Source: Escherichia coli O127:H6 str. E2348/69
Lineage (GTDB): Bacteria > Pseudomonadota > Gammaproteobacteria > Enterobacterales > Enterobacteriaceae
Length of the DNA stretch: 64,000 bases
Assembly (NCBI RefSeq): GCF_000026545.1
Contig: NC_011601.1
Direction: 5' to 3' (one strand)
Both the position numbers and the translations under genes were made by a program. Positions 37,063 to 37,717 of this stretch are shown here, in pieces. Below the pieces are notes generated by a model. That model was not told where the DNA came from. It searched no databases and was given only the letters and a program-made list of their open reading frames with translations. Within the stretch, counting starts at the first letter, position 1. Each line of letters opens with the position of its first letter.

Positions 37063-37470
37063 TTATCTTTGCGTCTCTTGTTGTAACAATATCCGCCGTA
37101 AATCCCGCCATTCGGCTTCGTCCATGCTGTCAGCTGCCAGCCATAAATGTTGCCGTTTTCCGCTGTCAGAACGTAAACGCAGCATCATGCCGCTCTTAAT
37201 CATCCACGGCGCTTTGACGATGCTCCACTCCTGCCCTTGCCAACGCAAACGCCCGTCCATCAACAAGCGAATTTCCCCCTGGCGAGCATTAATGCGCCGC
37301 TGGCTGCGAACGCAATCAAACACCACCAGCGAAAGTAACACCATCCATAACGGGGTGTAACTGAGCGGCCAGGGCATGAGTAAAATAACAGCGGCAACCA
37401 GCCCATGAATCAGCAAGGAAAGCCACTGTGCGCGCCAGGAGACGCGCAAATCAGATTGCCACAGGACCAC
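37063..37470 (-). CDS. cptA: inner-membrane protein CptA/YgfX
   Basis: 135-aa ORF with two TM segments; 20-bp overlap with sdhE. Confidence 0.85.
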
Positions 37471-37717
37471 GTTCCCGGTTCCGTGTCTGGATGAGTCGGA
37501 CCATCATTTCCAGTTCTGCATCGGCCGGTTTACCGTGATTCATCAGCCAGTTAAACAGGTCCGGATCGTCACATTCCAGCAGACGAATAAAGATGCGTTT
37601 TTCGTCATCGCTTAAGCTGTCGTACTCATGTTCGAAAAACGGCATGATTGAAATATCGAGTTCGCGCATACCACGGCGGCATGCCCAATGAATGCGGGCT
37701 TTGTTGTTAATGTCCAT
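37451..37717 (-). CDS. sdhE: FAD assembly factor SdhE (YgfY/CptB)
   Basis: 88-aa ORF with RGxxE motif (RRGMRELD). Confidence 0.9.

Follow-up and report, generated by a model that had tools for sequence, protein, structure and literature searches.

The window analysed here, 64,000 nucleotides (nt) of Escherichia coli O127:H6 str. E2348/69 (contig NC_011601.1), contains the neighbouring genes sdhE (ygfY, cptB) and cptA (ygfX), which share 20 nt in different reading frames. The pair is probably an ordinary two-gene operon of the enterobacterial core genome with a true 20-nt overlap, in which the synthesis of CptA is tied to the translation of sdhE because the putative cptA initiation region and its GTG start codon lie under the ribosomes that terminate on sdhE. 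Databases and literature already cover both genes, the overlap between them and the argument about their status as a toxin-antitoxin (TA) module, and the pair is ordinary of its kind. The evidence given below concerns the conservation of the overlap, a block of nearly invariant synonymous sites around the cptA start codon, and the readings that compete with coupling.

Geometry and conservation of the overlap

Both genes are encoded on the minus strand, sdhE at 37451-37717 (88 amino acids, ATG start, TGA stop) and cptA at 37063-37470 (135 amino acids, GTG start). The RefSeq coordinates are exactly those of the list of open reading frames (ORFs), and the curated K-12 record, which places b2896 at 3040416-3040823 and b2897 at 3040804-3041070, gives an identical overlap of 20 nt. 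These three sources bear out the out-of-frame overlap of 20 bp described in the first-pass annotation of this DNA. E. coli K-12 has this very gene pair (sdhE-ygfX, b2897-b2896; CptB/CptA), with an identical overlap and again a GTG as the start of ygfX, and the E2348/69 alleles differ from those of K-12 by nothing but strain-level synonymous changes. The overlapped bases (37451-37470) are dual-coding, as they specify residues 83-88 and the stop codon of SdhE together with residues 1-7 of CptA. The GTG (37468-37470) lies inside the sdhE codons CGT-GGT (Arg83-Gly84), and since it begins at the second base of codon 83, cptA is read one frame ahead of sdhE. With the two genes on one strand and overlapping, a terminator cannot fit between them. 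Among the same-strand overlaps annotated in the window, sdhE/ygfX is the longest; the others are short, namely aas/lplT (8 nt, 1668-1675), ygfM/xdhD (4 nt, 17965-17968), ygfT/ygfS (1 nt, 25661) and pepP/ubiH (4 nt, 49142-49145).

Conservation of the overlap across genomes, which had been proposed as a check on it, was found throughout the family. A search from a 7-sequence alignment yielded 64 other Enterobacteriaceae loci with CptA identities of 72-99%, and in all 65 loci (the window and the 64 species) cptA starts with GTG, sdhE stops with TGA and the overlap measures 20 nt, a constancy that excludes an overlap produced by a chance ORF. The geometry also recurs in distant Enterobacterales, for which the encoding contigs of twelve representatives were taken and the sdhE-cptA junctions read. 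The GTG occupies the same place in 7 of these 12 loci, and six of them (L068, L071 from the Edwardsiella cluster, L072, L073 from Providencia, L074 and L079) also have the 20-nt overlap. In two Pantoea-type loci (L075 and L076) this GTG is lost (CGC-GGx for CGT-GGT) and the start is a GTG 6 nt upstream, giving an overlap of 26 nt; the overlap annotated in Leminorella (L069) is 29 nt, and that of a locus on a low-GC contig (L077) is 14 nt. Overlaps of 14, 26 and 29 nt share the phase of 20 (8 + 12) and belong with it among long phase-1 overlaps, defined as 8 + 3n and more than 10 nt, and the only related locus that is out of phase is L078, with 19 nt. Long phase-1 overlaps (-8, -11 ... -20) are a recognised class, several-fold commoner among long overlaps because they cannot be shortened to -4 or -1; long overlaps as a whole are fourfold rarer than short ones (PMC10666635). 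In the window, the 64 species loci and the 12 distant loci alike, cptA lies directly downstream of sdhE on the same strand. As far as these sequences reach, the overlap geometry is old and widespread in Enterobacterales, yet not obligatory for the family, its depth beyond that order being taken from the literature on Shewanella and Acinetobacter.

Two proteins and the bases they share

The identities given to the two genes in the first-pass annotation, sdhE and cptA, are upheld by Pfam, NCBIfam and RefSeq. SdhE matches Pfam PF03937 (Sdh5) over residues 7-79 (E=5e-26; 90.8 bits against a threshold of 27) and scores 198.4 bits with the NCBIfam equivalog NF008130, whose cutoff is 120. Its translation contains the RGxxE motif (R15-G16-M-R-E19), a motif named as conserved (PMC8621075), and it aligns to the solved E. 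coli YgfY/SdhE chains 1X6I/1X6J, 6C12 and 6B58 with E values from 8e-59 to 2e-51, of which 6C12 is titled flavin adenine dinucleotide (FAD) assembly factor SdhE. The housekeeping role of the protein is established: SdhE is needed for covalent flavinylation of SdhA and FrdA (PMC5042078, PMC5293155), succinate dehydrogenase activity is lost in a ygfY mutant (PMC5293155), and the PDB matches include structures solved in complex with SdhA and FrdA. Its gene is preceded by a Shine-Dalgarno-like AGGAAG (37721-37726, minus strand), recognised by reading the sequence, 4 nt upstream of the ATG, and that ATG (MDINNKAR) is entered as an experimentally supported initiation site in the TRAINSPOTTER N-terminomics supplement (PMC13245402).

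CptA matches Pfam PF07254 (Cpta_toxin) over residues 2-131, corresponding to profile positions 1-132 of 133 (E=1e-49; 168.5 bits against 27.3), and the same family is matched by all 38 aligned CptA homologues. Neither an NCBIfam nor a PADLOC model matched the protein, and a PDB search found no solved structure of it. The AlphaFold2 model (predicted local distance difference test score, pLDDT, 95) comprises a strand at residues 2-8, helices at 12-31 and 36-62, six strands and a helix at 118-134. This prediction, in which a beta-rich domain follows the helices, agrees with the architecture of the YgfX/CptA family, whose members are small proteins of the inner membrane that combine two membrane helices with a cytoplasmic domain. 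The model suggests a PH-like domain whose first strand is split from the rest by a two-helix membrane hairpin. In the alignment of 38 representatives W4, L8 and S11 are conserved down to about 21-35% identity, and most of the proteins start at the same position. The overlapped bases would then encode a structural element of CptA, the conserved N-terminal first beta-strand.

The contribution of the same bases to SdhE appears to be of another kind. From the end of the Sdh5 domain at residue 79, sdhE continues for nine codons into the 5′ end of cptA, to an in-frame TGA, and in the distant loci the SdhE tails diverge strongly (...RGPVAI, ...RRSLEE, ...RDSLAL, ...KNNVAD) while the CptA N-terminus is still recognisable. 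Because the domain ends at residue 79 and the tails vary where the CptA N-terminus is kept, the SdhE tail seems to be a passenger, the overlapped bases being needed by CptA and merely carried by SdhE. The simplest reading of the overlap is a run-on of sdhE past its domain into the 5′ end of cptA. Loss of a stop codon is the proposed route to most overlaps (PMC10666635); here an earlier sdhE stop may have been lost and the extended form fixed, or the overlap may have been retained for a long time, given that the phase-1 geometry leaves no way of shortening to the favoured forms, -4 and -1.

Several public assemblies contain SdhE and CptA fused in a single ORF (proteins P0003, P0004, P0006, P0007, P0009, P0013, P0012 and P0021). 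The fused ORFs are 207-217 amino acids long, carry both Pfam domains and fall in clusters of 1-2 member sequences each, and the position of the frame switch (junction 37451-37475) differs among them, in several cases lying within the overlap (after G84, V86 or I88). They have the look of sequencing errors or of 1-nt deletions that arose independently, and not of a programmed event.

A putative cptA initiation region and its probable link to sdhE translation

Synonymous variation in sdhE collapses towards the junction. Across the 65 sequences, third-position entropy averages 1.07 bits over codons 2-77, where the lowest five-codon window reaches 0.68 bits, and falls to 0.13 bits over codons 78-82 (Mann-Whitney p=1.7e-4 against codons 2-77) and 0.12 bits over the overlap codons 83-88. 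The drop extends over 36 nt (37451-37486), and variation returns at cptA codon 8, the first after the sdhE stop. Dual coding cannot account for the constancy of codons 78-82, because these lie upstream of the GTG and out of the cptA frame. The 16 frozen nucleotides upstream of the GTG, ACACGGAACCGGGAAC (37471-37486, minus strand), comprise codons 78-82 (37472-37486) and the first base of codon 83; a start is absent upstream of the GTG, and in L068 the cptA frame is closed 4 codons upstream, so that the stretch stands outside the cptA reading frame. Among codons 78-82 are two CGG codons for arginine, rare ones that are constant in the set, and the GGA motifs to which they give rise span -12 to -10 and, nearer the GTG, -5 to -3. 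On the strength of this pattern we infer that the 16 nt are the initiation (ribosome-binding) region of cptA, embedded in sdhE.

Ribosomes that finish sdhE would cover both this putative initiation region and the GTG, and CptA synthesis would in this way be linked to sdhE translation. The link might be made by melting of local structure, by short backward re-initiation (the TGA lies 17 nt downstream of the start), or by both. The GTG start and a poorly spaced Shine-Dalgarno-like GGGA probably hold CptA synthesis down, and probably below that of SdhE. The likely benefit of the overlap is the co-expression of two proteins that reportedly interact, not the neutralisation of a toxin. In Serratia, sdhE is transcribed together with ygfX, and SdhE and YgfX interact, according to the account in PMC5042078, which cites McNeil 2012 and 2013, and in Shewanella reverse-transcription polymerase chain reaction (RT-PCR) across the junction shows co-transcription (PMC8621075).

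Two known systems offer a comparison. The sdhE-cptA overlap resembles the long phase-1 overlaps of Huber et al. 2023 (PMC10666635) in that it has the same phase as -8, is co-directional and has an upstream ORF that runs into the downstream gene, and in that an interaction of its products has been reported, a frequent trait of overlapping pairs; it differs in being longer than the -8 to +6 range of efficient termination-reinitiation. In the coat-lysis overlaps of RNA phages (MS2, fr; -38 to -50 nt; PMC12548453) the downstream start likewise lies well upstream of the stop, and coupling there relies on unfolding or on terminating ribosomes that move back, which shows that long overlaps can be coupled. 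An inhibitory structure has been demonstrated in the phage pairs, in contrast to the hairpin over the GTG of cptA, which is predicted and not significantly supported.

That hairpin (37460-37485, minus strand; CACGG-A-ACCG / GGAACG loop / UGGU-C-CUGUG in the minimum free energy fold) would sequester the GTG, and 88% of its cells are paired in the Enterobacteriaceae alignment, where sequences hardly vary. A second predicted hairpin (UGCGCGUC-UCCU-GGCGCGCA; 37429-37448, minus strand, from the same type of fold) covers cptA codons 8-15 and has 73.5% of its cells paired among close species of little variation. The CGC codons of CptA Arg9 and Arg13, whose third base is almost invariant in the 65 species where neighbouring codons vary, form the core of this predicted 8-bp hairpin, which begins 2 nt past the sdhE stop. 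At the distant loci, 68 of 108 pairs of the first hairpin are formed, a modest excess over the 36-48 of slid controls, and local folding is no more stable than in shuffled sequences (z-scores not significant). The second hairpin is equally tentative.

The overlap had at first been taken to imply tight translational coupling. The geometry alone does not imply it, although coupling is still plausible, and several observations weigh against the reading preferred here. Experiments on native genes place efficient termination-reinitiation at -8 to +6 nt (PMC10666635), and the stop-start distance of -20 nt falls outside that range. The hairpin whose unfolding would provide the coupling is not clearly conserved outside Enterobacteriaceae. 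Crude anti-Shine-Dalgarno pairing energies are identical for the cptA and sdhE sites (-4.3 kcal/mol) and are equalled by 16% of random 20-mers; since this energy does not separate the two genes, what speaks for weak initiation at cptA is confined to its GTG codon and to the unfavourable spacing of the GGGA. The overlap is dispensable in some lineages: in L066 a TAA at the codon equivalent to Glu82 stops sdhE 1 nt before the GTG, and in Shewanella oneidensis the genes are separated by a gap of 37 bp (PMC8621075). One of the two search patterns behind the 64-species set consisted of the CptA N-terminus, so that the set is skewed in favour of conserved N-termini, with codons 78-82 unaffected; the 38-representative alignment, the start of the Pfam profile at residue 2 and the AlphaFold2 strand at 2-8 are independent of the set. 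A search of the literature turned up no study in which the start of cptA, or coupling, had been measured directly, and no reporter or ribosome-profiling data for ygfX, and YgfX is not among the entries in the accessible part of the N-terminomics table (PMC13245402).

The strongest competitor holds that the overlap is a neutral by-product of a lost sdhE stop, that cptA is translated independently of sdhE, and that the overlap persists only through dual coding and a phase-1 geometry that resists change. This would suit an SdhE tail that falls beyond the Sdh5 domain and differs from one distant locus to another, and lineages without the overlap do exist (L066 and Shewanella, as above). It is harder to reconcile with the ease of escape, for a single GAA-to-TAA change at codon 82 removes the overlap, as in L066, and 75 of 77 loci nevertheless keep it. 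The frozen synonymous sites upstream of the GTG count against it as well, as they point to expression signals under selection, even if such signals fit independent initiation as well as coupling. Independent translation is thus a possibility that deserves to be kept in mind, at clearly lower odds than CptA synthesis tied to the translation of sdhE.

Other readings of the junction and its surroundings

The first-pass annotation called the status of the pair as a TA-like module debated, and the literature does conflict (PMC3985639 and PMC8621075 against PMC8132199). The pair has been held to be a true type IV module (CptB/CptA) in which the overlap prevents synthesis of the toxin in the absence of the antitoxin. 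Toxicity of E. coli CptA and its rescue by CptB were reported from overexpression work by Masuda et al. 2012, as cited in PMC8621075 and PMC3985639, a CptBA-like pair of A. baumannii has been reported as a TA system (PMC8132199), and the Pfam family name Cpta_toxin reflects such reports. The Fineran group, working with Serratia and E. coli, could not detect a TA phenotype (PMC3985639), and the phenotype was accordingly not reproduced for this pair; an interaction between SdhE and YgfX has moreover been detected (PMC3985639, PMC5042078), and this binding conflicts with the definition of type IV, in which the toxin is not bound by its antitoxin. In Shewanella the pair falls short of the TA criteria and a ygfY deletion could be obtained (PMC8621075), E. 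coli lacking ygfY can grow, though not on succinate (PMC5293155), and SdhE has the housekeeping role described above.

The distribution of the locus speaks in the same direction. Of 5426 complete E. coli genomes, 5425 contain a match to a 1061-nt query around the locus, the median copy number being one, and distant Enterobacterales keep the context ygfZ / sdhE-cptA / fldB-xerD-dsbC. A patchy, multi-copy or mobile distribution, typical though not strictly defining of TA modules, is not what sdhE-cptA displays: it is a single-copy, syntenic core locus, and it is matched by no PADLOC model. Near-universal presence in single copy and kept neighbours fit a housekeeping operon, not a mobile addiction module. 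The defining type IV pair, CbtA/CbeA (YeeV/YeeU), offers a likeness, since CptA too is reported to inhibit FtsZ and MreB on overproduction (as cited in PMC8621075 and PMC5624674). CbtA/CbeA resides in cryptic prophages, in contrast to sdhE-cptA, which is core and syntenic and whose SdhE has an independent, conserved role in enzyme assembly. On balance, a true type IV module is an improbable description of this pair.

A further proposal, which we regard as quite unlikely, is that the 36-nt junction block, beyond ribosome binding and dual coding, serves as a post-transcriptional operator, such as a CsrA/RsmA site, and fixes the level of CptA synthesis irrespective of SdhE. The block contains two GGA motifs 4 nt apart, the second of them in the loop of a predicted hairpin whose 3′ arm holds two bases of the GTG, and in Serratia RsmA represses sdhE-ygfX partly by an undefined route independent of FlhDC (PMC5042078). 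Programmed frameshifting to a membrane-anchored SdhE-CptA fusion is still less likely than such an operator, and was rejected since the deletion points of the fused ORFs differ and a slippery motif is not visible. The prfB gene of the same window (31831-32929) is annotated with its well-known programmed +1 frameshift, and the sdhE-cptA junction shows no comparable slippery site.

Upstream of the GTG the cptA frame stays open for no more than 11 codons, none of them a start codon, and the only canonical starts at the 5′ end of the gene are the GTG, with its overlap of 20 nt, and a TTG at codon 8 (37447-37449, minus strand), 1 nt past the sdhE stop. Across the 65 Enterobacteriaceae sequences codon 8 is TTG, CTG, TTA, CTC, CTT or ATA, with an entropy of 1.21 bits at the first position and 1.78 bits at the third; the TTG was rejected as the start of cptA in this family because codon 8 varies while the GTG is invariant. 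Public annotations of YgfX differ in length (97, 113, 115, 125 and 136-140 amino acids in the clusters of P0147, Edwardsiella, and P0154, Providencia), from which it follows that the choice of start varies among annotations; the long form is the conserved one. That the overlap is an annotation artefact, with CptA starting at the codon 8 TTG or at Met32 and the genes abutting, is extremely improbable: the TTG at 37449 does sit 1 nt past the stop, records of YgfX with 97-125 amino acids do exist in Providencia and Edwardsiella, and experimental start-site data for YgfX were not found, but against this stand the variable codon 8 beside an invariant GTG, the conservation of residues 2-7 including W4 in distant homologues, a Pfam profile that begins at residue 2, a confidently modelled beta-strand at residues 2-8, and the first membrane helix, which a Met32 start would remove. 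A reassigned start codon had been named as what would undo the overlap; the sole candidate that removes it, the TTG, is unconserved, and the refutation fails.

No sigma-70 consensus site was found in a promoter scan of 36900-38000, and a terminator scan gave two terminator-like matches within cptA, both at chance level. Folding energies nevertheless single out a convergent hairpin between the 3′ ends of fldB and cptA (37030-37059, both strands), at -21.8 kcal/mol (z=-5.3) on the plus strand and -19.5 kcal/mol (z=-4.0) on the minus strand. It has a T-rich tail on the fldB side only, which overlaps the cptA stop codon. It is likely a shared terminator or 3′ stabiliser for fldB and cptA, and the terminator scan probably overlooked it owing to an internal loop that separates its lower and upper stems.

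Elsewhere in the window, 15 kb away, lies a genuine type I TA pair, the SIB RNA (RF00113, 136 bits; 52442-52592) antisense to the annotated ibsC (52517-52576), and 6S RNA (ssrS) is found at 51610-51793. Two tandem IS4-like ISEc13 transposase genes encoding an identical protein (WP_000244358.1) fall within 10296-15807, between araE and an N-terminally truncated ygfK pseudogene. Further annotated pseudogenes (17965-20835; 56748-58656) are xdhD with an internal stop, a truncated gene of the methylmalonyl-CoA mutase family and a truncated srsR.

The overlap of sdhE and cptA is no artefact of annotation, and the conservation of its geometry extends over the order Enterobacterales. The frozen stretch upstream of the GTG marks a target for mutations with which to test how the ratio of SdhE to CptA is set. 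Taken together, the overlap and the frozen block could help to decide between CptA as a toxin and CptA as a partner of the flavinylation factor.
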